DNA from: Gemmatimonadota bacterium
GTDB lineage: Bacteria; Gemmatimonadota; Gemmatimonadetes; Palauibacterales; Palauibacteraceae
Length of the DNA stretch: 59,614 nt
Reading direction: 5' to 3'
NCBI GenBank assembly: GCA_039714435.1
Contig: JBDLJJ010000003.1
Coordinates: 1 to 59,614, forward strand
Shown: piece by piece, positions 24,601 to 47,644 of the stretch
Layout: each line of letters opens with the position of its first letter
How positions within the stretch are numbered: position 1 is the first letter of the stretch
The notes under the pieces: model-generated
The model's input: only the letters and a program-made list of their open reading frames with translations
Database searches by the model: none
What the model was told of the DNA's origin: nothing
Translations under genes and position numbers: made by a program

Positions 24601-27200
24601 TCCGGCGTCCACTCCAGAAGGTGCCGCCGCGTGATCCACAAACGTGCCAGGGTTCGAAGAATGGCGTCCAGCGCGATCCATGCCTCGTACGGAAGAAACA
24701 CCCCGGCCAGAACCCACCGGCCGAGGTTTGCGGCGAGCCCGGTCCGGCCGTGGGAGGTATGCTTGCGGCCGCCCTCGCTCCTGTCGTCGGAGCGGGCAAC
24801 GTGGATGAACCGGCGAGTCGCCGTGGCCGCCCCGAGAAGTGCAGGAAAGCCTAGAACGACCATAGCGCCTACGGCCCAGCGCCAGGGAGGGCCAAGACCA
24901 AGGAACCACCCGAAGAGAAGCATGGCCATCAGGGATGGAGCCAGCAAGCTGCGACGGAGGTTGTCCCAAATCTGCCACCTGGAGATCGGTCGCAGCTGAT
25001 TCCGAATGCGAGGCCCCGCGGCCGACGGCACCCGGGGCATGAGCCAGGGAAGAAGCTGCCAGTCGCCTCGTACCCAGCGATGCAGACGACGCATGTATGC
25101 CAGTGGCTGATCCGGGAAGTCCTCCAGCAGAATCACGTCGCCCAGAAAACCGCAACGTCCGTGGGCGCCCTCGAACAGGTCGTGACTGAGCAGGCGGTTG
25201 TCGGGCACGCGTCCGGCCAGGCTCGCCTCGAACGCCCGCACGTGGAAGATCCCCTTCCCCGCGTAGATGCCCTCCGCGAACACGTCCTGGTAAACATCCG
25301 AGATCGCGTGTGTGTAGAGGTCGAGGCCGGAAGGAACTCTCCCCAGCCACGCGAACAGAGTCGGCCGACCTGGATCCAGAATCGTCTCCAGCCGCGGCTG
25401 AAGAACCGTGTAGCCGGCCACTACGCGATCCTCTTCAGTCAGCACGGGCTCGTTGAGCGGGTGAGCCATGGCCCCGATCATTCGCTCCACGGAGCCCCGT
25501 GGAAGACCCGTATCGCGGTCGAGGGTGATCACGTATTTCGTGGCCTCCAGGCCGGTGCGGGATCCTGCCATCAGAACCAGGCCCCCATCATCCACTCCCA
25601 TGAGCAGGCGGCTCAGTTCTATCAGCTTGCCCCTCTTACGCTCCCATCCCATCCAGCGCCCCTCGTGCTGATTCCACTGACGCTCCCTATGGAAGAGGAG
25701 AAACGGAGGCTCGCCATCGGTCTGGTGGCGGCGGTTCAACAGAAGCACTCCCTGGCGTGCTCTTTCCAGGAGTTCGTCCTCTTCAGGCAGATGCTTGAAA
25801 TCCGCGTCCTGAAAATCGGTGAGGAGCGTGAAGCGCAGGCGGCGCAGGCCCGTGCTTTGATAGAGAACCTCCAGATGCTCCAGAAGCTGATCCAACTCGT
25901 GCGCGTCGCCGATGAGCACCGGCAGGGCGACCAGAGTGGTACAGTCTTCGGGCACTTCGTCGCGAATCCTCAGCTTCGGCAAGACTCGAGCTGGTACCGA
26001 GTGTGAGACGATCCAGTTGAGCAAGCTTCCGGCCACCGTCAGGCCGGGGACCACGCCGCTGGCCAGCACCATGATCCGTGCACTCAGCGGCACGCCAGGC
26101 ACGCCGACAAGGAGCCACAGAGCTGCCGCGATGAGAAGCGTTAGTGTGACCACGACGCCTGTGTACAACGGGAATGCATGGCGCCGAACCCATCTGCTCA
26201 CTCGCTTCCTGGTACGGGGTCGGCAGGCCACGTGGAGTTCGAGTTCAGTACGACCTTCGGCTATGAGATAGAAGCCGACGTGTCCGCTTCTGGACTCTGT
26301 CTTGGTATCCCTACGGCTGAGCAGGACTACCGCTCCCGCGACTCCCTCCTCGCTCCACCCGGAATCGACTGCGACCTCGGCCAACACCTGCCTGTAACGA
26401 TCACGAGTAGCAAAATCCATACGCTCATAGATGCTACTGGGATCTTCACGAAGTGTTTTCTCGACCAGGCTGGTCGCGTCGAAGAACTCTCGCCAGTTCA
26501 TTCCGCCAATAAGCCGCAGACTCCCGATACAATTGGCAAGGGTCATCCAGGATGGTTGGCTCCTGGGCGGCCAATCCGGGATAGCGGTCATCGTCTCGAT
26601 CTCTAGCGCCCGTTCGGCCCCGGAGACGAGAGTCTCCAGCAGGGCGAGCTGGAGAGCTGCCGGCAGTGTCCATAGCTCGACCATTCTGAGCGGAGCGATG
26701 CTCTGATAGGCGTTGACGAAACCGACCAGAGCATCGGCATCCAGCTGCTGAGAAAGGTACTGAAGGACGCCGGCGCCAACGGCTTGCACGCGAGCCTCGG
26801 AACCTCCACCCGCACTCTCTAACCGCGGGAGTTGGCGAGAAAGGTCTCGGGCTCCCGCATCCTGTACGTCCCGCAGGGCGGATTGGATCACGTGTTCGTT
26901 GTCGAGGAGCCACTCGGCCGCGCGTGGCGCGCGTACCTCCGCCTCGGAGGTTTCTCTGAATCGGCGATAGACGACTTCGAGGCGGGGACGAAGGCTTCGT
27001 AGCCTTAGTGCGAAGCTGGGGCGGCGGCCGCGCCCGGAAGTTGTCTTGTGACGCTGGGCGAGTTCGCGGGCTATGCGCTCAAGCGCACCTCCCTCTCGGA
27101 CCTCACCCACCGGCACCGTTGTGCATAAGCTGGACTGGCCCGTGCAACTCCGCACAAGAGGGCACCTCACTTGGCACCCGCGCGCGAACCTGGGAGGCAT
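18618..27200 (-). CDS. ndvB: Cyclic beta-1,2-glucan synthase (GT84 + glucoamylase-like + GH94 phosphorylase), Cgs/NdvB family
   Basis: About 2.8 kaa; WMGWERKRGKL, LLSHDLFEG, RLHRWVRGDWQL, RTSPTNIG, YDLLASEARL, YQSSGAFGFRDQLQD, GDWNDG, RENGGQYTH. The true start is likely the GTG near 27110, overlapping the usp end. Confidence 0.94.
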   Translation of the reverse strand: MPPRFARGCQVRCPLVRSCTGQSSLCTTVPVGEVREGGALERIARELAQRHKTTSGRGRRPSFALRLRSLRPRLEVVYRRFRETSEAEVRAPRAAEWLLDNEHVIQSALRDVQDAGARDLSRQLPRLESAGGGSEARVQAVGAGVLQYLSQQLDADALVGFVNAYQSIAPLRMVELWTLPAALQLALLETLVSGAERALEIETMTAIPDWPPRSQPSWMTLANCIGSLRLIGGMNWREFFDATSLVEKTLREDPSSIYERMDFATRDRYRQVLAEVAVDSGWSEEGVAGAVVLLSRRDTKTESRSGHVGFYLIAEGRTELELHVACRPRTRKRVSRWVRRHAFPLYTGVVVTLTLLIAAALWLLVGVPGVPLSARIMVLASGVVPGLTVAGSLLNWIVSHSVPARVLPKLRIRDEVPEDCTTLVALPVLIGDAHELDQLLEHLEVLYQSTGLRRLRFTLLTDFQDADFKHLPEEDELLERARQGVLLLNRRHQTDGEPPFLLFHRERQWNQHEGRWMGWERKRGKLIELSRLLMGVDDGGLVLMAGSRTGLEATKYVITLDRDTGLPRGSVERMIGAMAHPLNEPVLTEEDRVVAGYTVLQPRLETILDPGRPTLFAWLGRVPSGLDLYTHAISDVYQDVFAEGIYAGKGIFHVRAFEASLAGRVPDNRLLSHDLFEGAHGRCGFLGDVILLEDFPDQPLAYMRRLHRWVRGDWQLLPWLMPRVPSAAGPRIRNQLRPISRWQIWDNLRRSLLAPSLMAMLLFGWFLGLGPPWRWAVGAMVVLGFPALLGAATATRRFIHVARSDDRSEGGRKHTSHGRTGLAANLGRWVLAGVFLPYEAWIALDAILRTLARLWITRRHLLEWTPEAASRRALRAHGGLFGHWRRMIVAPLVGVGGAFWLWSVLGNLPGVSLAFFGAWTASPAVAFLLSRPIPSRRREIPAQAEWLLREIALRTWLFFDQFVTAEDHFLPPDNWQEDREPALARRTSPTNIGMLLTSLVAAYDMGYVGLLSLESRVRNVLDSVDQLESYRGHLLNWYSTEDLRPLEPRYVSSVDSGNYAAALVVLRRTLLDAARVPVIRPVDSRGVMDVAQTFSRFVESGPAAHTDAARRLHDLLIDLDGACQLAGSDALEFVSLHLELRERLLPAIDESAVSLAEHSSMNRAAIHELRDWLSQLHRQLDLWDAERSALDPWTASLAAPPSLFAGGASLRSYESARVERIWSDLRTVLLRSVSPLDVPSMASKAQEHATRLEDVVRAGAFDADSVQCIVTWCEGLRSELARSIAESKRLLDSLDELTDRCTVQIEEMDFGFLYDRSRRLLHIGYQVTAEELDPHYYDLLASEARLASYVGIAKGDLPSSHWLQLGRAFGLVGRSPVLLSWSATMFEYLLPAVFMRSPPTSLLAHSSRQAVREHMNFGRRHGIPWGASESAYGHRGDGDSYQYRAFGVPGLGLRRGLGERRVVAPYASFLALPYAPLKASRNVEGLVHLGAKGRWGMYESLDFGSQGESTSSPTVIRAYMAHHQGMILAALDNLLHDDVLIRRFHTDPRMAAVEYLLHEGLPWRVPVRPDWAAREGALPKGPSRVVALESWSPSPGGPMASLHTLSNGRYRVTLSDGGGGGSWWEDMAITRWQPDAVRECQGQWLYLLDLDSGALWSAGRAPTGSSEGDVSAEYWPHMAALNRRDHQISSHLRITIPPDADVEIRRLTITNESDKTRRLAAVSYAEIVLGSGDEDLRHPAYSKLFLEGEYRRNPGCVVYRRRPKSPEEPSAYLAQALVGDDGDGLSSTWELSREVFLGRSGSSARPEALARGKAELSGKRGAPLDPIVALSAEFRLPPYATTEFACLTAVGRNEEDVLARIEEYRSLTRCAWAFESARQMAEEELAALGLHPSEHQDFQRLLSALIQGGHGLRAPADVRSVSAAPQAELWRFGISGDLPLLVLRLGHPEELEMARTLLRAHAYWRQKGVAIDLVLEDLASSGYAQPARDALRAALAESGSIDWLASPGGIHIVTAEQVQPDDLAFIESAASVFLDATGGTLADQLTRLEETPAGLPAFVPVPSSPLAPEPTVPLDREEALEFDCGLGGFASGGEEYVIRLDPGQTTPAPWAHVLANPEFGCLVTEGGGGYTWATNSSENRLTAWRNDPVLDEVSEAVYLRDEETGQVWSATQRPAGPDVPREVRYGAGYATFRQNSHGLEQRMRIFCALEDSAKIVELTLTNQWRRPRRFTITYFAELVLGSSRANSSRHLLPEFDGSTQTLLVRNPYSLAWSERYAFLTSSEPAHGVTTDRKEFLGAEGDFAKPGSLFRIGLSGRIQPDGDVCAAYQVHIDLPAGASRSLHFVLGQAETRSAAIQLARRFSRPSMIRSTRNGIKRYWDRLLGSVTVSTPEPAMDIMLNRWLPYQVINSRLWGRTGYYQSSGAFGFRDQLQDVLSLLDLAPSHAREHILAAARHQFSQGDVLHWWHPETEVGVRTRCSDDLVWLPYATATYVQRTGDAAILDELAGFIEAEPLRDSEGDRYGRYVASSSPETLYEHCLRALRKADTHGSHGLPLIGSGDWNDGLDRVGAAGDGESVWLGWFLAATLREFATMCDLQGDSEQSAVFQDRAAELIDRIEETSWDGDWYRRAYYGDGTPLGSSSSREGKIDLISQAWAVLAGGAETERQNRAMESVAQLLFRPEKSLVLLLHPPFDRTSRDPGYIKAYPPGVRENGGQYTHAAVWAGWAFGLLGQSSRAVGVFRMLNPVLRVTSEAAAREYRVEPYVVPGDVYGAPPYVGRGGWTWYTGAAGWFYRFGVEQILGLQRQGQTLSVNPRIPDDWPGYEIRMHTPALTAEIRVFRSEGGQLEWTLDGRKQGAVATV

Positions 27201-34482: not shown

Positions 34483-35934
34483 TTACTCCGGAATCGTGAC
34501 GTCGAGCGTTACGATCTCGCCGAATTCGTCCAGCGGACGGTCCAGGCGCTCGGGATCAGCCACAGCCAGCATTACCAGCTGATCCGGGTGCAGATGCCGC
34601 TGCGCGGCCGCTTGCACGTCAGCCGTCGTGACCGCCGTGATCCCGGTTCGTATCTGCTGCAGAAAGTCCGCCGGATAGCCGTAGTACTCGTACAGCATCT
34701 GCCGGCCTACAATTTCCCCAGGTGAGTCGAAATTGAAGATGAACGAGTTGAGGAAGGCATTCTTGGCGTAGTTAAGCTCCTCTTCGCTCACTTCGCCGCT
34801 CTTCATGTACTCGATCTCCGCTAGCACAGCCTCCAGGGCCTCGGCGGTAGACTCGAGTTTCGTCTGGCCCCCGACCTGGAAAATGCCCGGGTAGTCGTAG
34901 CTTGCCCCCACGGACCCGAAGATCGAATAGGCGAGACCTTTTTCTGACCGGATCTTGTTGAACAGCCGGGACGCGAAGCCCTGACCAAAGATCTTGTTCA
35001 TGACCTGAACCGCGAAGTAGTCCGGGTTGTCTACGGTCGTGCCCAGGTGTCCGACCCGGAAGTTCGACTGAGTGAGGTCAGTCTTCTCCACGAAGTAAAC
35101 TGTCCCGGCTTTGGCCGGCGCAATCTGGAACTCCCGAGGTAGATCGACTTCCGCCCGCTCCCAGTCCCCGAACTCGCTCTCGATCGCGGCCAGTACCTCG
35201 GCCCGGTCGAAGTCGCCCGTAACTCCAAGCATGATTTGGTTGGGGTGGTAATACTTGGCGTGAAAGTCGATGAGGTCCTGGCGCGTAATCGCATCAATTG
35301 TAGCGTTTTCAGTATGCCGCGCATACGGGCTCGCAGCACCGTAAACCAGCTTGGCGAACTCGCGCCCCGTGATACTTCCCGGAGAGTCGTTCCGCCTCGC
35401 GATTGCGCTCTTTCGCTGAACCTTGGCCTCTTCGATCTTGTCGGCCTCGAACTGTGGCCGGCGCAGCATGTCGGCCAGCACTGGAAAAACATCACCGAAG
35501 CTTTCCTTCAGCACTCCCATGCCCGCGGTGCCCACACTGGATCCGATACCTCCGCCCAGAGAGGCGGCCCGGTCCTCCAGGAACAGATCCACCTCCGCGC
35601 CTGTCCGGTCACCCGCTCCACCTGTGCGCATGACGCTTGCCGTGATGCTGGCCAGCCCGACCTTCTCGACCGGTTCATAACGGCTACCCGTCCTGATTCT
35701 TACGCTCACGTTAATAAGCGGGAGCTCATGTTCCTCGAGCAGGAAGACGACCATCCCATTGGGCATTTCCACTCGCTCAGCCTGCGGGATTTCGATCTCG
35801 TTCAGTGGTGGGTACTCGATGTCGGCGGGCGTCAGGGCCTGGCCTGCCGCCTGAGGAGCCGCCACCATACCGGTAGCCGCTACAGCCAGCAGCGCGACCG
35901 TGGTCCTGGGCAGTCGGATTGTGATCGCATTCAT
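34483..35934 (-). CDS. M16 (pitrilysin) peptidase, non-catalytic subunit
   Basis: Signal peptide, M16 fold motifs, SRLF..IRSEKGLAY, lacks HxxEH. Confidence 0.88.
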   Translation of the reverse strand: MNAITIRLPRTTVALLAVAATGMVAAPQAAGQALTPADIEYPPLNEIEIPQAERVEMPNGMVVFLLEEHELPLINVSVRIRTGSRYEPVEKVGLASITASVMRTGGAGDRTGAEVDLFLEDRAASLGGGIGSSVGTAGMGVLKESFGDVFPVLADMLRRPQFEADKIEEAKVQRKSAIARRNDSPGSITGREFAKLVYGAASPYARHTENATIDAITRQDLIDFHAKYYHPNQIMLGVTGDFDRAEVLAAIESEFGDWERAEVDLPREFQIAPAKAGTVYFVEKTDLTQSNFRVGHLGTTVDNPDYFAVQVMNKIFGQGFASRLFNKIRSEKGLAYSIFGSVGASYDYPGIFQVGGQTKLESTAEALEAVLAEIEYMKSGEVSEEELNYAKNAFLNSFIFNFDSPGEIVGRQMLYEYYGYPADFLQQIRTGITAVTTADVQAAAQRHLHPDQLVMLAVADPERLDRPLDEFGEIVTLDVTIPE

Positions 35935-37442
35935 GACGTTGCCTCCTCTTTCGACTCGGTCGCGATCATGCCGACCGTGCGGCGCTGATTATCGAAGTAC
36001 TGGTTCGCGACCCGCTGCAGATCCTCCGCCGTCAACTCCTGGATCGCGTCGATGTTGTGGAACAGGTTGCGCCAGTCGCCCGTCTTGGTGTGCACGTTAG
36101 CCAGCCGCAAAGCGAGCCCGCTGTTGGAATCGAGTTGCCGGATGAGGCTGGCGCGCAGCTTTGTCTTGGCACGGTTCAGTTCCGCTTCCGACACGAGTTC
36201 AGTCTTTAGGCGCGCTACCTCGATGTCGATCGCGGAAGCGACCTCGTTGTTCTCGTGTCCGGCGGCCGTCGTCGCGTAAAAGATCATCTGGCTCGGATAC
36301 TTGTCACCGGGAAAGCCCGGAAAGGCCCCGGTGGAAAACGCGATCTTCTCGTCAGTGACGAGGCGCTTGTAGAGACGGGAGGACCTGCCGTTGGACAGAA
36401 CCGTGGACAGCACCTGCAGGGCCTGATAGTCAGGGTGCGTAACCGCCGGGATCGGATAGCCCACCAGGTACCAGGGCTGTCCCGGATCGGTAAGCTTCAC
36501 CATGCGCTCCGCCTTGACCACAGGCTCCACGGTCTCGATAGGGGCCGGTTCTTCTCCCCTGGGGATGCGGCCGAAGTATGACTCCAGCGTGGCTATCGTC
36601 TCCTCAGGCTCGATGTCCCCCACAATCGCGATCGTCATATTCTGCGGCACATAGTGCTTCTCGAAGTAGGCCTGCGCGTCTTCGCGGCTGATCGTCTTCA
36701 GATCAGACATGTGGCCCACCACCGGCTGCGCGTAGGGATGCGCGGTGAATGCGGTCGCGACGAACTGTTCGACCAGGCGCCCGATTGGCTGGCTCTCGGT
36801 CCTCAGGCGCCGCTCCTCCATTACCACGTTGCGCTCTTTGTAGAACTCGCGCAGAACTCCGCTCCGGTAGCGCTCCGACTCCAGGTAGGCCCACAGCTCG
36901 GCCTTGTTGGACGGTAGGGAGAAAAAGTAGACAGTGGCGTCGGCGTTGGTGAATGCGTTGAGGCCCTGCCCCCCCTCCCTCTCGATGATCTGTCCGAATT
37001 CGTTAGGGACCACAAAGCTCGCGGCTTCATCCTGCGCCGTCTTGAACTCGGCTTCCAGAGCGGCCAGGGCGTCTGCATCCCCCGCCCGGCGGGCCTTGAC
37101 GATCTTGGCGTAGACCACATCCACGTTGGCCATGGCCGCCTTTTCCGCTTCAGCGTCCTTCGTGCCCACGAGGTGGGTGCCCTTGAAGGCCATGTGCTCG
37201 AACAGGTGAGAGATCCCTGTCTTCCCGGTAAGCTCGTTGACGGCTCCCACATCCACCCAGTTGACGAAGGCCGTGACTGGGGCGTCGTGCTTCTCGACCA
37301 AGATCACATCAATCCCGTTCGACAGCGTCGCCTCGGTAACCTTTCCTTCGAAGTCCTCCAGACTCTGGGCTCTGAGAGTGGTGGGCACGACGGCTAGCAC
37401 TGCGAGAAGTAGATAGACAAAACGGGCGGGACTCATCTGCAC
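35931..37442 (-). CDS. M16 (pitrilysin) zinc peptidase, catalytic subunit
   Basis: GISHLFEHMAFKGT (HxxEH), NAFT, ERNVVMEERR; signal peptide. Confidence 0.93.
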   Translation of the reverse strand: MQMSPARFVYLLLAVLAVVPTTLRAQSLEDFEGKVTEATLSNGIDVILVEKHDAPVTAFVNWVDVGAVNELTGKTGISHLFEHMAFKGTHLVGTKDAEAEKAAMANVDVVYAKIVKARRAGDADALAALEAEFKTAQDEAASFVVPNEFGQIIEREGGQGLNAFTNADATVYFFSLPSNKAELWAYLESERYRSGVLREFYKERNVVMEERRLRTESQPIGRLVEQFVATAFTAHPYAQPVVGHMSDLKTISREDAQAYFEKHYVPQNMTIAIVGDIEPEETIATLESYFGRIPRGEEPAPIETVEPVVKAERMVKLTDPGQPWYLVGYPIPAVTHPDYQALQVLSTVLSNGRSSRLYKRLVTDEKIAFSTGAFPGFPGDKYPSQMIFYATTAAGHENNEVASAIDIEVARLKTELVSEAELNRAKTKLRASLIRQLDSNSGLALRLANVHTKTGDWRNLFHNIDAIQELTAEDLQRVANQYFDNQRRTVGMIATESKEEATS

Positions 37443-37605
37443 CTCCTCCTGAAACTGCAGGCACCTGCACTGATGCCGGCGAATCTAGGGGCCCGGCGGG
37501 ACTGCCGCGAGTTTTCCACACTGAAAAACTTGACCGTCGGGCGCCTCCCTTGTAGCTCAGACTACTCTTCGAGTGCCACGAGGGTCCCCCACTAGGTCGA
37601 TACGA

Positions 37606-39042
37606 ATGGTGACAATGGATTCTGACCAGACGGCGCCGGGTCCGGAGTTCCAGGACATCACGTTCCATGGCGAGCACGAGTCCGCTTGCGATCTTGATAC
37701 TCACTGCCCGTCGTGTGGCCAGTTCTATGTGCCCCGGCCTCTTGTCGTCGCGGCTGGCACGATCATGTTCATGGGCGCCTACTCCCTGAGAACCGGTCCC
37801 GCAGACCAGGCAGCCGCGATCAGCGCCGGCCTTTTTCTCATTCTGGCCTTCTATTTCATTTCGGTACTCAGAAGCCGGCCCTACGAGCTCGGGATCCTGG
37901 CCACCTCCGCGGTGGGCGTGTTCGTTCTGTTCTTTGCAGCCCGGCCTATGGCCATGTTCGCCGGATCGCCCCCCGAATTCCTGGTTCTTCTTGGTATCGT
38001 GGCCTTATTCAGTACCGTTGTCCTGGCGGGCAAGCACGGAGTGTCGGACTCGTCGGCGCTGGCGGGCGGGGAGCCAGGATCTCAGGCGGTCCTGCTCATT
38101 GCGGCGGCAAATCTGCTTCTCCTGTTCGTGATCTGGACGCTAGAAACAGTCAGCGCTGCGACCAGCCTCCGTTCCGATACCTGGCTTGCCTTTGCGGCTG
38201 AACACCTCCCGCTCATTCACTGGATATCGCTGGCCTTGGCCTGTTTTCTAGTACTCGTTTTTGCCTTCATCAGCGCATCGCGGCAGCAAGCGTGGTGGGA
38301 GGAAGTGGAGCCCAAGACCCGGGACCTGCCAGCACGAGGAGTCATCGCACGGGCTCTGGCGGCGAATTCAAACCTGCTGGCCAACATCCGGGCGGCAGCC
38401 CAGAACGGGTGGAGGGCTGTCAACGAGTTCTTTAAGGAAACCGGGCGGGCGATTCTGCGCATTGTGGCCATGACTGTCGTCAGGCTGGTCGCCGTGCTTA
38501 TCAGCTTGTCCAGACAGGGGCTCATTCTGCTAGGCCTCACCATACTGGCCGTGTTCAGCGTGACTCTGGCCATCGAGATCGCGATTCTGTGGCAGCAGCA
38601 ATCAATGTTCAAGCCGGTCCTGATATTCTGGCCGCAGGCCATCGTGCTCACCGTACTGGTGATAGCGCTCTCCACTCTCATCGGCGGACTGTCGTTCAAG
38701 AGGTGGTCGGCTCGCCCACGTGCGGGAGCCAGTGTGCGCACGCTGTTCTCAGCCACGGTCGGCACCACTCAGCAGCTGAACACAGCCCTCCGCAGCCTGG
38801 TGTTTTCGGCCGTGTGGTTCCTCTTCTATACCGCGGTTTCACTCTGGTTTGCCTGGCTCGCCGTCAATATCCTTTCCGGTGCCCAGGAAAGGGCGGTTCC
38901 AAGAACCCTCGGACTCGGTTTCATCGGCGCCTCCGTCCTGTTTGTCTTCCTCCTCTGGCAGATACGGCCCAGAAGACAGTCCCGGCTGTCCGCTAAAGCT
39001 GTTGAAAGGCCAGCCCGCCGCTTCTTCCTGGCGGGTGACTAG
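37606..39042 (+). CDS. Hypothetical polytopic membrane protein with N-terminal Cys/His cluster
   Basis: Long ORF with roughly 10 hydrophobic segments; HGEHESAC..HCPSCG near the N-terminus. Start is uncertain. Confidence 0.65.
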   Translation: MVTMDSDQTAPGPEFQDITFHGEHESACDLDTHCPSCGQFYVPRPLVVAAGTIMFMGAYSLRTGPADQAAAISAGLFLILAFYFISVLRSRPYELGILATSAVGVFVLFFAARPMAMFAGSPPEFLVLLGIVALFSTVVLAGKHGVSDSSALAGGEPGSQAVLLIAAANLLLLFVIWTLETVSAATSLRSDTWLAFAAEHLPLIHWISLALACFLVLVFAFISASRQQAWWEEVEPKTRDLPARGVIARALAANSNLLANIRAAAQNGWRAVNEFFKETGRAILRIVAMTVVRLVAVLISLSRQGLILLGLTILAVFSVTLAIEIAILWQQQSMFKPVLIFWPQAIVLTVLVIALSTLIGGLSFKRWSARPRAGASVRTLFSATVGTTQQLNTALRSLVFSAVWFLFYTAVSLWFAWLAVNILSGAQERAVPRTLGLGFIGASVLFVFLLWQIRPRRQSRLSAKAVERPARRFFLAGD

Positions 39043-39132
39043 GCGCAGGGGCAGACTCATTGCGGCCACGACGGCAGAGCGCCATCGTACGAAGGGTGAC
39101 GAGGCGGACGAGGCTGACAAGGTGAGGATTCC

Positions 39133-39585
39133 ATGCGCAAGATGATAATACTGGCTGTTCTGGCGATAGCGGGTGCGGTCAGTTTCGGCGTCTTCGCCGG
39201 CCAGGCCAGCTCGCAGCAGGTAACTGTCTACAAGTCGCCTACCTGAGGCTGCTGCGGTGAGTGGGTCACTCACCTTCGCTCGCAGGGTTTTGACGTCGAA
39301 ACGGAAGATGTTCCAAATCTCACGGTCGTGAAGCTGGAGCATGGGGTTTCCTCGGCTCTCAGCGCCTGCCACACCGCGGTCGTGGAGGGCTACGTGATCG
39401 AGGGCCACGTCCCGGCCGAAGATATCCGCCGACTGCTCGAGGAGCGGCCGGCCATTAAGGGACTTGCGGTGCCAGGCATGCCGGCCGGGTCACCGGGCAT
39501 GCCCAGCCCGATGCCTGTACGCTACGACGTGCTGGCGTTCGACGCCGAGGGCAACACCCAGGTTTTCGCCACACACGGTCCTTAG
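39133..39585 (+). CDS. DUF411/CopG-like periplasmic metal-binding protein, predicted selenoprotein (UGA at 39244-39246)
   Basis: GAGG SD, ATG 39133, signal peptide, VYKSPT-UGA-GCCGEW in frame with ACHTA..GYVIEGHVPA..GLAVPGMP.GSPGM. Family consensus is YKSPTCGCC. Confidence 0.88.
39256..39274 (+). promoter_or_regulatory. Bacterial SECIS-like hairpin
   Basis: GGTGAGT-GGGTC-ACTCACC starting +10 after the UGA; loop G at +18. Confidence 0.75.
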
Positions 39586-39676
39586 CCGGGCGCCAGCGCT
39601 CATTAGAGCGCAGGCCCCTGACACAACCTCGCGGACCTCCTCGTAGGGTGAATTGTGGCCCTAACGAGGAGGTTGG

Positions 39677-40381
39677 GTGGAGCCGACGCGCACCGATGAT
39701 GTGAACGTAGCCGCGCGAGACACCTGGATCGCGCTCGCATACTTCAGCGCTTACCTGCTCCTCCTGTTTTCTACCCTCGAATCAGAGTTCTTTCATTGGG
39801 TGACGCTGGTCGCGATCCCGCTCGCCATCGCCTGGGTCTCCCGGCCGGCCGGACAACGCACCCTCAAGGCAGCGCTCACTACTGTAGGCCTACGCCGTGG
39901 GAACCTGACCCGAGGAGTCGCTTGGGCCCTCGTTCTGGGCCTGGCTATCAGCCTGTTTCAGGTTTTCTTCTCAGCACGGTCAGGGGAAATCCAAGCGCTG
40001 ATTTCGAGTGGCCGAGCGCTGTATCTCTTCCCGCTCACTTTCGTGCTCATGATGGGACTGGCAGGATTCACGGAGGAATTCTTTTTTCGCGGATTCCTGC
40101 TGACCCGGCTCGAGCCGCTACTCAAGTCCAGGTGGCTCGCCGTGATCGCTTCCTCGCTCCTATTCGGAGTCTATCACCTCCCTTATGCGTACATGAACCC
40201 CCGCTGGCCCAGCGCGGGAGACTGGGGAGAGGCGTGGGCAGCAGCACTGGGAAACGGCGTTCCCGGCGGTCTGCTACTGGGGACCCTTTACGTGCTGACC
40301 GGGAGAAATTTGCTCGCCTGTGTTGTTCTGCATTCTTTGATCAACGCTGTTCCGGCCATGACGATGATGCGTTTCGGCTAG
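39677..40381 (+). CDS. CPBP (Abi/CAAX) family intramembrane metalloprotease
   Basis: EEFFFRG, FGVYH, H..IN motifs; multiple TMs. Confidence 0.9.
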   Translation: MEPTRTDDVNVAARDTWIALAYFSAYLLLLFSTLESEFFHWVTLVAIPLAIAWVSRPAGQRTLKAALTTVGLRRGNLTRGVAWALVLGLAISLFQVFFSARSGEIQALISSGRALYLFPLTFVLMMGLAGFTEEFFFRGFLLTRLEPLLKSRWLAVIASSLLFGVYHLPYAYMNPRWPSAGDWGEAWAAALGNGVPGGLLLGTLYVLTGRNLLACVVLHSLINAVPAMTMMRFG

Positions 40382-40391
40382 AATCAAACGG

Positions 40392-40901
40392 TCACATGCC
40401 GCGCGAGCGCGCCTCCTTGGCCAGCGAACCGCTTATCACAGCCAGGGCTTCCTCCGGAGTAAGGCGGCCCACGGCGGCTGTGCTGTAGATCGCGGTCACG
40501 ACCTTCCCCGTGGGGCCGATAACGAACCCGGTCGAATGCAGATTGCGGTGGGTCGGATTGAAGAAGGCGCCCGTCGCGGCCGCCACCTCGCGGGCGACAA
40601 GATCGTATCCCAGTGCGAATGCGATGTCGTTCTCGGAGGCGGCTTTTCGGGCGTCCTCCAGATTGTCCGTCGAAGCCGCCACGACAAGCGCCCCCAACTC
40701 CCGGAAGTCCTCTAGCCGGGCCTGAAAGTCAGCCAACTGCTGACTACAGTGCGGTCACCAGTGGCCCCGGTAGAAGAGAAGTACTGAGTATCGGCCCTCG
40801 GCGTCCGCAGGCAACTGGAGAGTCGTTCCGTCGATCAGAGGGATGCGAAGCGGCGGAAACCGGACCCCGGTGTCGAGCTTTCTGGCGGCGTCCTGGGCCA
40901 T
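40392..40901 (-). CDS. Peroxiredoxin-like (AhpC/TSA) protein, predicted selenoprotein (UGA at 40757-40755; UxxC)
   Basis: ATG 40901 (TGATG overlap with the dinB stop); LLFYRGHW-UGA-PHCSQQLADFQ continues in frame to ...VAASTD...GFVIGPTG...GRL. The family motif is FYRGxWCPxC. Confidence 0.9.
40727..40745 (-). promoter_or_regulatory. Bacterial SECIS-like hairpin
   Basis: Minus strand AGTCAGC-AGTTG-GCTGACT starting +10 after the UGA; loop G at +18. Confidence 0.75.
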
Positions 40902-41425
40902 CAAACTTCCTGCACCGCCGCGAGGGTTCGCTCGATCTGGCGCAGGTGTAAGAGATCGTGGCCGGCCGTCAGCGATATGTTGAGTCCCACGCTCTCGGGA
41001 CCGCGCTCCTCGTGTACACCTACCCGCTCCCAGGCCGGACCCCGCGCTCGCCAATAGAGCTTCACGTTGAGCTGTCGGAGGGTGCGGAACTCCGCCAGCA
41101 TCTGCCTTACGTGCCGTTCGTTGTGCTCGAGTCCGGCGGTCATGAGATCCTGGTCATAGCCCGGAATAGGGGGCTCCGGATGGGACAACATGAGACGCAC
41201 CCGGTAGCCGTACACCCACTCCGTATCGCACAGGTGTCCGATGACCTCGGCCACCGACCACGCGTCTTCGGCCGGGCGCTTGTGTAGAGTTCCCTCTTCA
41301 ACTCGAGCGACAATACTCTCGACCTTGCCGGCTGTCGCGTCCAGTACCTCCAGGGGGTCCGCGTCCCCGACGAGGTCCTGAAGCATTTGCTGATATTCCT
41401 GCGACTGGTCGACCGGATCAGTCAT
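40901..41425 (-). CDS. DinB family protein
   Basis: WSVAEVIGHL.D.E...R, YDQD, AGHDLLHLRQI (His triad). Confidence 0.9.
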   Translation of the reverse strand: MTDPVDQSQEYQQMLQDLVGDADPLEVLDATAGKVESIVARVEEGTLHKRPAEDAWSVAEVIGHLCDTEWVYGYRVRLMLSHPEPPIPGYDQDLMTAGLEHNERHVRQMLAEFRTLRQLNVKLYWRARGPAWERVGVHEERGPESVGLNISLTAGHDLLHLRQIERTLAAVQEV

Positions 41426-41468: not shown

Positions 41469-42344
41469 TCATGGCTGTTCCAACGCATCCAGCTTCCTCT
41501 GGGTTCTGTCGTTCCCGGCCCTGACGGGGATCGCCCCCATCCAGTTACCGTACATCGGGTTGGGAAACATGAGCCAGCGGCGTCCCCACTTACCGACGTT
41601 GTCTGCCATGATCTGGTCCCGCTCCGTGTCAGGCAGACTGGCCAGCACGAAGTCGTTGAGATCGTCTCCCAGAAGCAGGAGAACTCGATACTTGGACGCC
41701 ACCTCCGCCCTGCGCGACGACTTGTCGGAGGTCCATTCCTCGCGCTCCCAACGCGTAAGCACCGTGTCGAAATCAGGCAGCGGACCCAGTCCGACCTCCT
41801 CCAGGTTCCGCCGGGTCCCCGGCTCGATCGCGTGATCGTGATTTGTCACGTAGAACACCGTTACACCCATGCGGTGGGCCGCGGCGACGAACTCCCGAGC
41901 ACCCGGCATGGCAATGCCTCTGGCCGCGAGCACCCAGGGGTACCACAGCTCCTCCGTAAAAGACTGACCCTTGAGAATCATGTGCCCCTGGAACACAGCG
42001 TGGGTGAGGACCGTCTCATCCACGTCGGCGATAATCGCGGGTGGAAGGCTTCCATAGCCCTCCCCCTGCTCCAGCGCCGCTGTCCAGGTAGTGTCGGCCA
42101 GGGCTTCCTCGAGAAGACGTTCGGCCATCCGGAACGTCTGCCTCGTTACGGCCTCGTACTCGGAAGACGTCTGTTGCCACAGGACGGCGTCCAGGTTGTC
42201 GTGCGGCGTGGCCCGCTCGGTCTGCTGAGCCTGAGCTTCGGCGCCGGAAGGAGACCCCACAACAACCGTCGGCTGCGTCGACGCGCAGGCCGCGGAGAGT
42301 AGAAGAAGTGGCCCAAACAGAATACGGGTTTGTCGGCAGCTCAT
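41469..42344 (-). CDS. 5'-nucleotidase/class C acid phosphatase lipoprotein (e(P4) family, HAD)
   Basis: Lipobox LSAAC, DVDET, VTN, K..RR, GDDLNDF, PNPMYG.W. Confidence 0.9.
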   Translation of the reverse strand: MSCRQTRILFGPLLLLSAACASTQPTVVVGSPSGAEAQAQQTERATPHDNLDAVLWQQTSSEYEAVTRQTFRMAERLLEEALADTTWTAALEQGEGYGSLPPAIIADVDETVLTHAVFQGHMILKGQSFTEELWYPWVLAARGIAMPGAREFVAAAHRMGVTVFYVTNHDHAIEPGTRRNLEEVGLGPLPDFDTVLTRWEREEWTSDKSSRRAEVASKYRVLLLLGDDLNDFVLASLPDTERDQIMADNVGKWGRRWLMFPNPMYGNWMGAIPVRAGNDRTQRKLDALEQP

Positions 42345-42555: not shown

Positions 42556-45357
42556 CTAGAGATCTAACTGAATGCGCGAGTAGTAAAACCCGCCGTTGCT
42601 TCCGAACTGCGTCACCCGACGGCTGAAGACAAACCGCTCGTCACTGCGGTTGCCTGACAGCTCGTGCTGATCGGGATAGGTGTTCAGAAGGTTGTTGGCA
42701 CCGATCGACCACCGTACTCCCTCTGAGATCTCATACGCGAGATCGAGGTCGAATATGGTCTTGGCGTCGAAGGTCTCGTCGTTGGCGTCGTTCGTCGGCT
42801 TGTACTCGACCTTGCCGAAGTAGTTGCCCCGAACAATGAGGCCGAACCGGTTCTTGTCGTACTTGACAGTCAGGGACCCCTTTTGCCTCGGAAGCGCGTC
42901 CTCGAGCCGGTTGCGCTCTTCCCGATTGAACAGTGTGCCGGTGATATCGGTCGAGCCGAAAATGGCCTGCATGCTGGCCGGCGTGTTGATCGCCGTCACA
43001 TCCGTATCGGTGATGTTGGCCGAGCCTGTCAGTGTGAGCCGGCCTCCGTTGTCCAGGTTCGCCGCGTACGATGCGACGATATCCACGCCAAACGTCTCGG
43101 TGTCGACGGCGTTGGAGAAGAACTGTGCCTCCGCCACGCCCGAAGCGGCAAACGGCGCCAGGATACCGGCAACCGTCGGATCGGAGTTTCCGAATCGACT
43201 CGTAAGCACGATCCTGTCGTCGATCGTGATGAAATACACGTCAGCCGTCAGGGAGAAGTTTGGTGTCGGCCGGGCCGTAAACCCGCCACTCACGTTCACC
43301 GACGTCTCTTCCTTCAGATTCGGCACTCCGAACGCCGTAGCCACGCCGCTCAGGTTGTTGGCCGTGAGTACCTGTCGCGCCACCAGATTGCCACCGGTAT
43401 CCAGAACGAACTGCGTGCTGATGTTGTTGAACCAGGCCTGGTGAAGCGAGGGAGCCCGGAATCCTGTGCTCACCGCTCCGCGAATGGCGAAGTTCGGAGC
43501 CGCTTCTATTCGCGCCGCGATCTTTCCGTTGACCGTACTGCCGAAGTCGGTGTAGTTCTCGTACCGGCCACCGATGTCCAGCAGTACCTGATCGTTGATC
43601 TCCATCTCGAGACCAGCGTAGGCGCTGATGCTGTTCCGGGTGCGGTTCACTTCGTTGGCGGGCTGGAATCCTGTAAAGACCTGCGAGCCGGGATTCTTTG
43701 CGGCGCCGGCCGATGTCGTATCGAAATCGACTCCGGGAACCGGGCCGCCGTTGCCCAGACTGAAGGACTCAAACTGGCCCGCCCCGATCTCGTAGTTCTC
43801 AACCCGGAACTCACCGCCCAGCACGAGCGACAGCGACTTGATCTCGTCGCCCGTGTCGAGAAGGCGCACCGCATCCACGTTTCCAGTCGTTTGACGGAAA
43901 CTCAGCGTACCCGCGTCAAAGCTGACCGGGCTGGCTGCTCCCATGGAGGCATTGTTTGTGTTTTCGATATTGAACAGGAAGGAATTGGTTCCCCTTGTCA
44001 CGCTGAGATCCAGGTCCCATCCGGCCTCCTGGCCGCGCAGGCCCACAGTCACGGACCCGTCATTGATGCCCGTCACGATTTCGGGGAGAAATCCGTTCGG
44101 ATGCAGCGACAGTATGGTCTTGTTCTCCTCGTTGGCACGGCGGAAGAATCCAGTCGCAAAACCGTCCCGGCGCGAAAGGCCGCCGAAGGCGTACAGCTCA
44201 GCGTCTTCGCCTACCGGAAACGCGCTGTTGAAGAAGGCCATTCCGACGACCGCTTCACCCTGCCCGGTCTGCATCGAGAAGTCCGCTCGCGTCAGGCCGC
44301 GTGCTGCAATCTCAGCATCCGTCGCCGCGACACCACTGATCCCGAGGAACTGGTCCTTCATTTCGAGGCCACTGCGGTTGGTGCGCTCACGGTTCAGAAA
44401 ACGGCCCGTTACGTTGAAGAAACCCTCATCCGCAATCGGAAACCCGAAGTTCACTCCTACGTCAACCTGCTCACCGTCGCAGTCCCAATCGATGTTGAGG
44501 GGGTTGCCGCTCGGGTCGCTTTCGTTCGTCAGGCAGCCACCCGTCAGTCCGGCCGTCGCGGTCGCCTGCAGGCTTTCCGTCTGCTCCTTGAGCACAACAT
44601 TGATCACACCGGCTATCGCGTCTGAGCCGTACTGAGCGGAGGCCCCATCGCGCAGCACTTCGATCCGCTCGATGGCGCTCGTCGGAATAGCGTTCATGTC
44701 GACTCCGACCGTACCCCGTCCAAACGTTCCGTTTACGTGAACGATGGCGCTCGTATGCCGCCGCTTGCCGTTAACGAGTACGAGTACCTGGTCAGGACCG
44801 AGTCCCCGAAGACTGGCCGGGTTCACGTGATCCGTGCCATCGGAGATCGTCTGATGCGACGCGTTGAAGGAGGGCACGATTTCGCGAAGAATCTGGTTCA
44901 CCTCGGTGTGCCCTGATTCGCGAATCTCCGCCGCTGTGATTACGTCGATAGGCACAGGCGTCTCGGTAGCCGTACGTGCCGTGCGCGATCCGATGGCCAC
45001 AAGCTCGTCGCCGATAACCAGGGCCTGGCTTACCAGGGCAAAGTCAGCCGTGTTAGCCTGATCGGCCGACACCGTGACCGCCTGCTCCTGCGGAGCGAAC
45101 CCGATCAGTGTGACTCTGAGTGTGTAGCTGCCCGGTCGCACCCGGAGCTGGTAGGAACCAGAAGCTCCCGTGACCGCCGTGCGGTTAGTACCGACGATGG
45201 ATACGCTGGCGCCGCTCACGGCTCCCGCCGTACTGGCATCCGTCACCGTACCGGTGACGACCGCAGGCTCCTGCGCGGCTAGCGGTGCGGCGGCGAAAAG
45301 AAACAGCGCGGCAAGAGCCGCTCCGGAAAACCGGCGAACAGACGATGCGACTTTCAT
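42556..45357 (-). CDS. TonB-dependent receptor with N-terminal carboxypeptidase-regulatory-like domain
   Basis: GGAGG SD and ATG 45357, signal peptide, VTGTVTDA.., plug LRGLGPDQVLVLVNGKRRH, IERIEVLRDGASAQYGSDAIAGVIN, GANNL. Confidence 0.93.
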   Translation of the reverse strand: MKVASSVRRFSGAALAALFLFAAAPLAAQEPAVVTGTVTDASTAGAVSGASVSIVGTNRTAVTGASGSYQLRVRPGSYTLRVTLIGFAPQEQAVTVSADQANTADFALVSQALVIGDELVAIGSRTARTATETPVPIDVITAAEIRESGHTEVNQILREIVPSFNASHQTISDGTDHVNPASLRGLGPDQVLVLVNGKRRHTSAIVHVNGTFGRGTVGVDMNAIPTSAIERIEVLRDGASAQYGSDAIAGVINVVLKEQTESLQATATAGLTGGCLTNESDPSGNPLNIDWDCDGEQVDVGVNFGFPIADEGFFNVTGRFLNRERTNRSGLEMKDQFLGISGVAATDAEIAARGLTRADFSMQTGQGEAVVGMAFFNSAFPVGEDAELYAFGGLSRRDGFATGFFRRANEENKTILSLHPNGFLPEIVTGINDGSVTVGLRGQEAGWDLDLSVTRGTNSFLFNIENTNNASMGAASPVSFDAGTLSFRQTTGNVDAVRLLDTGDEIKSLSLVLGGEFRVENYEIGAGQFESFSLGNGGPVPGVDFDTTSAGAAKNPGSQVFTGFQPANEVNRTRNSISAYAGLEMEINDQVLLDIGGRYENYTDFGSTVNGKIAARIEAAPNFAIRGAVSTGFRAPSLHQAWFNNISTQFVLDTGGNLVARQVLTANNLSGVATAFGVPNLKEETSVNVSGGFTARPTPNFSLTADVYFITIDDRIVLTSRFGNSDPTVAGILAPFAASGVAEAQFFSNAVDTETFGVDIVASYAANLDNGGRLTLTGSANITDTDVTAINTPASMQAIFGSTDITGTLFNREERNRLEDALPRQKGSLTVKYDKNRFGLIVRGNYFGKVEYKPTNDANDETFDAKTIFDLDLAYEISEGVRWSIGANNLLNTYPDQHELSGNRSDERFVFSRRVTQFGSNGGFYYSRIQLDL

Positions 45358-45421
45358 GCAATCCTCCCGTAAAGTGACACCAGGATGCACCTGTACTACC
45401 AAGTTGAGGGGCGGGAACCGG

Positions 45422-47644
45422 CTAAAGATTGGCCGCGGAAGCCAGAACGTCAACCGCAATCGCCCCGTCAGCGGTTGTAAATACTGGATTGAGTTCAACT
45501 TCCGTTAATTCATGATTGGCCAGAAAGTAGACTCCGAGACGCTGAATCAGGCGGATCAGAGACTTCAGGTCGGCGGGCGGACTACCCCGATAGCCCTGCA
45601 GGATGGGATAGAGGCGCAGCTCGGCCAGCATGTTCAGGACCTCGCGCTCAGCGACCGGCAGACCTCGGATCGACCTGTCCGGCCACACCTCGGCGGACAC
45701 GCCACCCGCCCCCACAACAAGGATCGGCCCATACTGCGGATCACGCCTGCAGCCCACCAGGAGCTCCGCGATCGGTGCGGCTAACTGCTCACAAATCAGA
45801 ACGCCGCGAAAGTCCGCCTCAGTGCCGGTTTCCCTCGCGAAGGTATCAGCTGAGTCGCGGATGCGTTCGAACGCTACCTCCACATCAACTGGCGTCAGGA
45901 GTCCCAGTGCGACCCCGCCCGCCTCGCTGCGGTGCAGAATCGTGGACGAGATCAGCTTCGCCACCGCCGGACCATCAAAGCTTCCGGCGGCGGCCACAGC
46001 CTCGGCACCCGATGTGCAAGCCTTGCCCGCCACGAGGGGCACGCCCGCCTCGGCAACCAGGCGCCGGCCTTCCGCCTCGTTGAGAGCTACCCTGCCCTCA
46101 CTTCGGGCCTGTTTGATTATCAGACTGGCTTCAGCGCCAGGCTCCGCAGCGCGTAACGGGTCCGGCGCGTCGGCGTCAGGCGAATTCGCGCCGTCCTCCT
46201 GCTGGTCCACAGCCAGGTATTCCCCCCTGGCATACAGGGCTTGAATGCAGCGGCCGGCAGTGTCGAGGGAGCCAAGGACCGGGACCCCTGCCCTGCGGAG
46301 GCGCAGCAGGGCAGCCGTGTTGTGAGCCGCGTACAGCGTATGCACCAACACGGGTACCCCCGCCTCGGCCGCGATCCGGCTCATGCGCACGGCCGCCTCC
46401 GTCTCCTCCTGCTCGAGCGACTCGTCAAACCGGATGGCGTATCCGCCGAATAGTCCAGTGAGGAGAACGCTCCCTACGGTGGACTCGGCCGCCACCACGT
46501 CCAAGCACTCAGGGAATACGGACATGTTCCTGTCCCCCGCTCCGGCCAAATCGACGGGATTACCAACCGCCGCAGCAGGACCGAGCAGCTCGCGAAGTCG
46601 TTCCTGACCTTCGGGCGACAACTCCGCCAGTCCCATACCGAGCTCCGCGAGCCGATCCACGGCGAGAGTGGCATGCCCGCCCCCGTCCGCAATGACCGCG
46701 ATCCCGTGGCTATCGTGCCCGCCGGGTGGTTGACCGCCCAGCGCCAGGGCCAGATCGAGCACTTGGTCAGATCTGGTGGTGATTGTGATGCCACGCTGTC
46801 TCAGGAGAGCTTCGAACACGTCGTATGACCCGGCGATGGCCCCTGTGTGCGACAGCGCCGCGGAACTGCCGCTATCCGACCGCCCGCCTTTCAGCACCAC
46901 TATCGGTTTGGTCCGGTTTACTCTCTCCGCGGTGGGAAAGAATGCCTGTGGGTCCGAAAAACCTTCCGCATAAATGAGGATCCCCCTGGTAGTCTCGTCT
47001 CGCTCGAGAAACTCCAGGTACTCATCGAATCGAACATCCCCTTCGTTCCCAACGCCAACATATAGGGACAGTCCGAGCCCACGGTCACGAAGCTGAGTCA
47101 TGACGTCGAGTCCCACATTGCCCGACTGAGAGAGCATCGCCAACGATCCCGCTCTTGGCGGCGGAGATCCAACAAGATTCAGGCCGATGGCCGGGCTCAG
47201 CACGCCAGACGTATTTGGACCGATGAGCCTCAGGCCCGACGCAGCGGCCGCGGACAGGACTTCTTCTTCCAGCGCCCGGCCCTGGTCGCCCGACTCCCGA
47301 AAGCCGACGGCGAGGACTATCGCTCCGGGAATGCCTCGCTCTCCACAGGCCCGTACGACGTCCGGGACACGGACCGCCGCGGTACAGATGAGAGCCAGGT
47401 CCGGTACGGCGCCCAGTTCGGCTACGGAGGGGGACACCGGGAGTCCGAGTAACTCCCCTCCGTCTGGATGCACCAGATAGATATCACCCGGATAACCGGC
47501 TTCCTGGAGGGCCCGGACCACTCGATGGCCTCGTTTGGTAGGATCACGGGAAGCCCCGACAATCGCCACAGAGCGTGGATGCAGGAGAGGCGTCAGGTCA
47601 GCGCTCATGCGAGCTCCATCCTGATCGAGCCCCTGAAGGCTCAC
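45422..47644 (-). CDS. Acetate/acyl-CoA ligase (ADP-forming) family protein
   Basis: SVAIVGAS, IGPNT.G, SQSG, VGNE.D, SHTGAIAG phospho-His, NPVDL, ATP-grasp C-terminus (ELNP). Confidence 0.9.
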   Translation of the reverse strand: MSLQGLDQDGARMSADLTPLLHPRSVAIVGASRDPTKRGHRVVRALQEAGYPGDIYLVHPDGGELLGLPVSPSVAELGAVPDLALICTAAVRVPDVVRACGERGIPGAIVLAVGFRESGDQGRALEEEVLSAAAASGLRLIGPNTSGVLSPAIGLNLVGSPPPRAGSLAMLSQSGNVGLDVMTQLRDRGLGLSLYVGVGNEGDVRFDEYLEFLERDETTRGILIYAEGFSDPQAFFPTAERVNRTKPIVVLKGGRSDSGSSAALSHTGAIAGSYDVFEALLRQRGITITTRSDQVLDLALALGGQPPGGHDSHGIAVIADGGGHATLAVDRLAELGMGLAELSPEGQERLRELLGPAAAVGNPVDLAGAGDRNMSVFPECLDVVAAESTVGSVLLTGLFGGYAIRFDESLEQEETEAAVRMSRIAAEAGVPVLVHTLYAAHNTAALLRLRRAGVPVLGSLDTAGRCIQALYARGEYLAVDQQEDGANSPDADAPDPLRAAEPGAEASLIIKQARSEGRVALNEAEGRRLVAEAGVPLVAGKACTSGAEAVAAAGSFDGPAVAKLISSTILHRSEAGGVALGLLTPVDVEVAFERIRDSADTFARETGTEADFRGVLICEQLAAPIAELLVGCRRDPQYGPILVVGAGGVSAEVWPDRSIRGLPVAEREVLNMLAELRLYPILQGYRGSPPADLKSLIRLIQRLGVYFLANHELTEVELNPVFTTADGAIAVDVLASAANL

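Follow-up and report, generated by a model that had tools for sequence, protein, structure and literature searches.

A gene of the CopG/DUF411 family in a Gemmatimonadota bacterium is very likely a genuine selenoprotein gene that uses the standard bacterial selenocysteine (Sec) pathway. The gene lies at positions 39133–39585, forward strand, of a 59,614-nucleotide (nt) stretch of contig JBDLJJ010000003.1 (assembly GCA_039714435.1), hereafter the window, and has an in-frame TGA where the family has the first cysteine (Cys) of its C-x-C-C motif. A first-pass annotation made from the letters alone had read this codon as Sec, and that reading is supported by the genome's Sec machinery, by the recurrence of TGA at the same column in other genomes and by a hairpin characteristic of the Sec forms.

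The observed anatomy is that of one coding sequence with a single recoded codon. One frame runs from the ATG at 39133 to the TAG at 39583–39585, and with TGA translated as U it comprises 150 codons including one Sec codon. The sole in-frame TGA is codon 38 (39244–39246), the first position of U-G-C-C, and the remainder of C-x-C-C follows in the codons for Cys40 and Cys41 (39250–39255), both invariant in our alignment. Around codon 38 the read-through product reads ...QQVTVYKSPT-U-GCCGEWVTHLRS..., where the part after U begins GCCGEW. Farther on lie an invariant Cys79-His80-Thr81 (39367–39375), with the same residues in the solved structure 6wis, and the family's conserved methionine pair in M116-P-A-G-S-P-G-M123 (39478–39501), both located from alignment columns. 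A Shine-Dalgarno-like GAGGA, read from the sequence, occupies 39124–39128, 4 nt 5′ of the ATG. Under translation table 11 the same DNA yields two open reading frames (ORFs), of 37 amino acids (aa; 39133–39246) and of 85 aa from a GTG (39328–39585). What the first-pass annotation had described is confirmed: a split ORF track showing only the C-terminal 85 aa, a TGA on the first motif Cys, intact flanks and a ribosome-binding site.

The same annotation had also proposed a signal peptide. Residues 1–25 (39133–39207) do follow the pattern of a probable signal peptide of the general secretory type, with MRK, a hydrophobic run and then VFA/GQA, and with possible cleavage after residue 22 (VFA) or 25 (GQA). 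Residues 1–28 have low confidence in the structural model described below and the folded domain begins at strand 29–34; the solved CopG chain aligns from residue 30 onward only; and the start and N-terminus are conserved in a same-genus homologue (L016). Export itself is an expectation from sequence and homology: the protein is probably carried across the inner membrane and located in the periplasm.

Profile and fold comparisons both place the protein in DUF411/CopG, as first proposed. The read-through product scores 98.3 bits against Pfam DUF411 (PF04214; E 2e-28; gathering cut-off 27) in a match that spans residues 76–123 only. A solved DUF411 domain-containing protein (6wis/6wje) matches at E 1.8e-26 over residues 30–147 (118 residues), and the first Cys of its C-G-C-C stands opposite the TGA codon. 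Across 40 aligned homologues, codon 38 corresponds to an invariant Cys of the consensus VTVYKSPTCGCC, and C40, C41, W44, C79-H80-T81, M116, G119, S120, P121, G122 and M123 are invariant as well. The motif in the window therefore reads U-G-C-C, with Sec at position 1 and Cys at positions 3 and 4. Sec is a chemical analogue of Cys, and C-x-C-C appears to be kept in kind, not in letter.

An AlphaFold2 model built from the 41-sequence alignment (mean predicted local distance difference test score, pLDDT, 87.6) runs from strand 29–34 through S-P-T-U into helix 39–50, which puts Sec38 at the N-terminal position of a thioredoxin-fold CxxC. In the model, U-G-C-C amounts to U-x-x-C plus one more Cys. 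The best Foldseek match is CopG itself (6wis/6wje; template modelling (TM) score 0.92 by target length, root-mean-square deviation 1.3–1.4 Å, 39% identity; E 8.5e-15 for 6wis_A), followed by weak matches to glutaredoxins and thioredoxins. NCBIfam, which includes many selenoprotein-specific models, gave 0 families at E ≤ 0.01 for the protein. The best 120 database relatives are named 'hypothetical protein' or are unnamed, and a protein homologue search for informative names returned only full-length Cys-type relatives, none of them informatively named.

TGA at codon 38 is beyond chance, since dozens of independent genomes carry it at this position of the alignment. A six-frame search of 61 related genomes with the read-through protein found a homologue in 54/61, and 31 match rows contain TGA. 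In 30 of these, from 28/61 genomes, the TGA falls exactly at the first-Cys column; in the remaining row (L022) it is the terminator of a Cys form. The column is TGA in 11/37 genomes of the window's own family (itself included) and in 17/24 of a sister family. A phylum-wide sample of 401 genomes, a tally that includes three unpublished genomes (G152, G211 and G116) used in no other result, holds a homologue in 316, with loci drawn from the best 150 rows; there, Sec forms occur in two further families (best 150 rows plus 27 flagged regions). Among 82 loci (L015–L096), a sample enriched by 27 loci taken for their TGA flag, 45 have Sec and 37 Cys at the column. The 77 of this enriched sample that matched our first motif pattern divide by family into 10 Sec and 13 Cys (f1), 17 and 2 (f2), 14 and 13 (f3), 1 and 4 (f4), 0 and 1 (f5) and 0 and 2 (f6), and five loci missed by that pattern add 3 Sec and 2 Cys.

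The pairing of Sec and Cys forms extends to other phyla. In a species-representative genome collection, the best 80 loci comprise 12 with TGA and 68 with Cys at the column. By record title the 12 come from Gemmatimonadota (2), Rokuibacteriota, Methylomirabilota, Burkholderiales, Vicinamibacterales and Acidobacteriota (one each), a metagenome-assembled genome (MAG) titled 'Streptomycetaceae', Anaerolineae and three delta-proteobacterial MAGs. No homologue examined had anything but TGA or Cys at this column. Among Sec forms the motif varies to U-D-C-C (L162, a delta-proteobacterial MAG) and U-S-C-C (L082), so the second motif position is not fixed as Gly.

Sec and Cys have exchanged places within the family. 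A quick maximum-likelihood gene tree of 156 domains, 54 of them Sec and 102 Cys forms (121 columns), needs at least 14 Sec/Cys changes, against an average of 44.8 with shuffled labels, and its well-supported branches force only 2. The window's protein clusters with Cys forms in this tree, its nearest row being L016. Judged from these sequences, switching occurred more than once; because the tree is poorly resolved, we make no claim as to its direction or its number beyond that.

Strain variation shows that coding selection continues across the UGA. We placed contigs of three public metagenome runs on positions 38900–39900; one of the runs, X1, is possibly the source sample. Diverged relatives among the contigs differ from the window at 10–22 sites per contig. 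Of the variant places listed inside the ORF, 30/32 fall at third codon positions of this frame, 8/9 of them upstream of the TGA and 22/23 downstream, and none lies at the TGA or anywhere in 39244–39281 (14 further differences are outside that list). X1 contigs cover 38900–39273 and 39258–39900 with 0 differences and reproduce the TGA, although X1, as the possible source, may not be independent. One low-depth X2 contig joins 39256 to 39388, skipping 131 nt; we set this joint aside as probably a chimera or another organism's homologue.

These data bear on two alternative accounts of the TGA. In one, it kills a former Cys-type CopG gene, as a nonsense mutation or as an assembly or sequencing error. 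Such an account would suit a gene that gene callers would split, and same-genus genome G001 has, at 76% identity, a Cys codon one base from TGA at the column. It does not suit the presence of the same TGA in 30 genes of related genomes and 12 of the best 80 loci elsewhere, its exact reproduction in X1, its retention in diverged strains that vary at third positions on either side, or the intact and conserved state of both halves, and we regard it as highly improbable. The other account takes the two table 11 ORFs, which do exist, at face value, as a 37-residue exported peptide and an 85-residue cytoplasmic protein starting at GTG 39328. Yet the two pieces together are colinear with one single-domain protein, a start at this GTG would in the model cut the fold midway with loss of strands 1–2 and helix 1, and in-frame third-position variation runs through 39247–39327, which would then be non-coding. 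We give two separate products hardly any credence.

The genome also encodes the machinery that Sec insertion calls for. In the assembly (2.87 Mb, 222 contigs, 94% complete) we found SelA (E 1.2e-126), SelB, recognised by its wing domain (wing-3) inside a 728-aa frame, SelD (373.8 bits) and a tRNA-Sec with anticodon tca, detected by ARAGORN and by Rfam RF01852 (78.6 bits). The tRNA-Sec (17895–17991, minus strand) and selB (near 24482–24616, minus strand) are separated by about 6.5 kb on one strand of contig C16. The selD gene (locus L003, contig C54:6110–7039, minus strand) contains one in-frame TGA and is thus itself the Sec form; the Sec form of selenophosphate synthetase is a known selenoprotein. 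In other lineages SelA was present in 5/5 tested Sec-form genomes and in 0/5 Cys-form genomes, all from cultured proteobacteria (Marinobacter, Rhodanobacter, Halomonas, Pseudoxanthomonas and Maricaulis). Among the 61 relatives SelA does not discriminate, being present in 61/61 (in G057 weakly). The first-pass annotation had suggested looking for selA, selB, selC and selD and for homologues with TGA at the same column, and had held that the lack of both would point to a pseudogene or an error; the genome has the full set, and many homologues have the TGA while the rest have Cys.

Sec forms share a hairpin after the UGA that most Cys forms lack. In the window it occupies 39256–39274, with an 8-bp stem (39256–39263/39267–39274) that starts 10 nt past the TGA and a GGU loop (39264–39266) at nt 21–23 counted from the U of UGA. 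We made an ungapped alignment of the 63 nt that start at the TGA in 42 Sec forms. Most of them use a stem at nt 16–24/28–36 with a GGU or GUU loop at nt 25–27. In this common register 82.3% of cells are paired, vs. 31–50% when the 3′ partner is slid by 1–3 columns (n = 42), and 0/500 shuffles score as high in pairing or in covariation. At pair 17/35, 10 sequences have C-G and 8 have A-U, and five pair types occur at 16/36; the seven inner pairs are weakly informative because they are near-invariant and overlap the conserved W-V-G-H-L codons. When we scanned for contiguous stems of at least 7 bp within nt 8–50 past the codon, 37/42 Sec forms had one (36/42 with GU in the loop), compared with 7/35 Cys forms (2/35 with GU in the loop). 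The first-pass annotation had noted a SECIS-like (selenocysteine insertion sequence) hairpin directly after the UGA, and across the family the hairpin at this place is specific to Sec forms. Mean folding energy over nt 10–42 was −10.44 kcal/mol for Sec and −8.74 kcal/mol for Cys forms (Mann-Whitney P = 0.0076, a value that is only indicative because related sequences are not independent).

The window's register is 4 nt upstream of the common one. Three other Sec forms of the window's family, L070, L072 and L083, also use it, with compensatory changes in both strands of the stem, and the encoded residues differ (G-E-W-V-T-H vs. G-A-W-V-R/E/K-H). The same-genus Cys orthologue L016 retains a window-type hairpin, consistent with a recent change of one base between TGA and TGC. 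When L015, L070, L072 and L083 are set against the rest, residues +5 and +8/+11 covary with RNA pairing, xAG going with CUx and xCG with CGx (alignment columns 13–36). In Escherichia coli, the SECIS of fdhF is likewise a hairpin inside the coding sequence shortly past the UGA, with G and U in its apical loop. The DUF411 Sec forms differ from it in sequence and stem, and in using two registers 4 nt apart.

Together the hairpin and the machinery speak to a further alternative, in which the UGA is decoded as Cys, Trp or Gly through a variant code or near-cognate suppression. The conservation of the gene does demand read-through of some sort. However, TGA is an ordinary terminator in this lineage (in several Cys forms, for example L017, L018, L019, L022 and L025, and in a peroxiredoxin-like (Prx-like) neighbour), it is confined within the family to one column that is otherwise Cys, the hairpin is specific to Sec forms, and SelA follows Sec forms (5/5) and not Cys forms (0/5). 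We consider insertion of a standard residue very unlikely.

On the selenoprotein reading, UGA codon 38 would be decoded as Sec by tRNA-Sec and SelB, directed by the hairpin that starts 10 nt downstream, to give a full-length precursor of 150 residues. The N-terminal signal peptide would direct its transfer across the inner membrane, and the mature domain of about 125 residues would adopt the thioredoxin-like CopG fold with Sec38 at the N-terminus of helix 1. There a selenolate would replace one thiolate as a copper ligand, a redox-active nucleophile or both, as part of copper handling in the periplasm, for instance Cu(I)/Cu(II) redox chemistry or copper transfer. As summarised in PMC7558416, CopG is a periplasmic, thioredoxin-like protein to which a tetranuclear Cu cluster is bound by way of CxCC and two neighbouring Met, and it has been proposed to oxidise Cu(I) or to hand Cu to multicopper oxidases. 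By analogy, Sec most likely replaces a thiolate at a copper site, and a copper function in this lineage is somewhat favoured.

Several results weigh against this picture. Folding of the window hairpin is no better than that of shuffled sequences (z = −0.79 and −0.77), and the case for it is for this reason a comparative one; we discarded single-sequence folding as evidence, as it is uninformative in G+C-rich DNA. The window's register is common to only 4/42 Sec forms and, with so few sequences using it, does not rise above controls on all 42. A stem of at least 7 bp is missing from 5/42 Sec forms, L095 having just 4 bp, and part of the stem conservation could reflect the W-V-G-H-L codons at the protein level. 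An Rfam scan of 39000–41200 (E ≤ 10) gave chance-level matches only and no SECIS family, and among public sequencing runs no RNA run containing the stretch is listed. The signal peptide was called by eye, and the roles of individual cysteines are taken from the review summary in PMC7558416. A Pfam scan of the neighbours revealed no cop, cus or multicopper-oxidase linkage within about 6 kb in the window, and elsewhere a copper or efflux context surrounds only 2 to 3 of 18 Sec-form loci. L131 is flanked by genes for an outer-membrane efflux protein, a multicopper oxidase and CusF; L172 adjoins a P-type ATPase with HMA domains; L124 adjoins a resistance-nodulation-division (RND) pump; the rest have unrelated neighbours. 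Linkage of CopG to copper genes is, according to PMC7558416, frequent and not obligatory.

The sparse copper context gives some room to a reading in which the protein is a real selenoprotein with a role other than copper handling, either as a periplasmic thiol/selenol oxidoreductase or as a binder of another soft metal or metalloid (Hg, Ag, As or Se). Besides the lack of flanking copper genes in the window, the neighbours within 2 kb include a Prx-like Sec candidate and a gene of the DinB family, and other Sec-form loci adjoin DUF3179 or PCYCGC genes. In the model Sec takes the canonical redox position of the fold; the structural matches after CopG, though weak, are glutaredoxins and thioredoxins; and, according to PMC13188914, most catalogued thioredoxin-fold selenoproteins are redox proteins. 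Against a non-copper role, every ligand position of the family (C-x-C-C, C-H-T and M-x6-M) is invariant, the nearest solved structure is a copper-cluster protein (39% identity, TM 0.92), and the Sec forms at L131 and L172 stand in plain copper loci. We judge a non-copper role unlikely, though it has a real share of the probability, and take copper handling by a Sec-containing CopG as the working interpretation.

The family is new to the selenoprotein lists we examined, and the recoding mechanism is the standard one. A May 2026 review (PMC13188914) gives 119 prokaryotic selenoprotein families or subfamilies with domain identifiers in its Table 1, and the whole table has no entry for DUF411, PF04214 or CopG, in agreement with the earlier suspicion that the family was uncatalogued. 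Term searches of the GOS selenoproteome, BSepDB and deep-Sep papers likewise gave no DUF411 or copper-protein entry, although supplementary family lists could still hold one. In full-text literature searches nothing paired DUF411 with selenocysteine or COG3019 with selenoprotein, and nothing named PF04214. Searches for CopG with selenoprotein returned, among the matches listed, the coatomer subunit or otherwise unrelated work; for CopG with DUF411, and for selenoproteome with Gemmatimonad, neither term appeared in the matching titles or abstracts. We set PMC11672702 aside as not relevant to CopG, since CxCC there refers only to COG0523 GTPases.

The kind of selenoprotein is familiar. Exported or metal-related selenoproteins already known include DsbA/DsbG-like proteins, SaoB/SaoX, the CopZ family, SO_0444 transporters and a mercuric transport protein (PMC13188914). 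Thioredoxin-fold U-x-x-C selenoproteins (thioredoxin, glutaredoxin, DsbA-like, DsbG-like and thiol:disulfide interchange proteins; PMC13188914) share with the window's protein a Sec that follows strand 1 at the N-terminal end of helix 1, a Cys three residues on, Sec/Cys pairs among homologues and exported members. In contrast, the U-x-C-C motif has an extra Cys, and the CopG family is a metal-cluster binder, not a classical disulfide oxidoreductase. The CopZ-family (2Fe-2S)-binding protein, the SO_0444 Cu/Zn efflux transporter (UxC), the putative mercuric transport protein and the E1-E2 cation ATPase (PMC13188914) also have Sec for a metal-ligand Cys, but their folds and families are unrelated, and none is DUF411 or PF04214. 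With Pseudomonas aeruginosa CopG (6WIS/6WJE) the window's protein shares C-H-T, M-x6-M and the place of the Cys motif, whereas it has a UGA-encoded Sec for the first Cys, a downstream hairpin and no adjoining cop or cus genes, and would bind copper by homology.

Around the Sec gene, the window encodes, by Pfam scan, an M16 peptidase (35931–37442, minus strand), an Rce1-like/CPBP protease (39677–40381, plus), DinB_2 (40901–41425, minus), a class B acid phosphatase (41469–42344, minus) and a TonB-dependent receptor (42556–45498, minus). Immediately upstream (37573–39042, plus) is a gene for a multi-pass membrane protein of 489 aa that has no Pfam match; this gene ends 90 nt 5′ of the Sec gene on the same strand and is possibly cotranscribed with it.

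A second selenoprotein candidate lies 1.2 kb away. This AhpC/TSA Prx-like gene (40392–40901, minus) has an in-frame TGA at 40755–40757 and reads ...LLFYRGHW-U-PHC..., a U-x-x-C motif; Prx-like UxxC proteins are a catalogued selenoprotein family. With read-through it covers PF00578 profile positions 3–122 of 124 (E 1.5e-20), compared with 45–122 for the downstream ORF alone. Its ATG shares one base with the stop codon of the upstream DinB_2 gene, and the gene itself ends on TGA. Apart from this match, a crude window-wide scan for other in-frame TGA candidates returned mostly noise, the DNA being G+C-rich. At Sec-form loci elsewhere, a radical-SAM gene adjoins the DUF411 gene in 3/3 loci of the sister family f2 (L028:1931–3217, L033:149–1249 and L039:2115–3221). 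In two Sec-form loci of other phyla, the neighbouring genes at L142:2583–3281 (plus) and L175:3440–4036 (plus) belong to DUF3179 or PCYCGC (PF13798), both listed as families with Sec forms (PMC13188914).

If the selenoprotein reading is right, a widespread, multi-phylum family would be added to the bacterial selenoproteome, one whose members gene callers presently truncate. It would come with a usable annotation rule, U-G-C-C and, after it, a hairpin whose loop is GGU or GUU, and its two SECIS registers within one family would be useful for better bacterial SECIS models. The repeated appearance of Sec at one ligand position, the nucleophile site of the thioredoxin fold (at least 2 switches and perhaps about 14), is an argument that the copper site carries out redox chemistry. 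Building on this, we tentatively raise the possibility, doubtful as it still is, that Sec-CopG would be the first protein with a selenolate in a multinuclear copper cluster, that the first Cys of C-x-C-C would be catalytic or redox-active, and that CopG would be a periplasmic copper oxidoreductase, not a passive binder. The Sec and Cys forms would offer a natural experiment on CopG, whose mechanism is so far only proposed. The same tentative possibility would also tie selenium supply to tolerance of copper in Gemmatimonadota, Acidobacteriota, Methylomirabilota/Rokubacteria, Chloroflexota, deltaproteobacterial lineages and some Burkholderiales.

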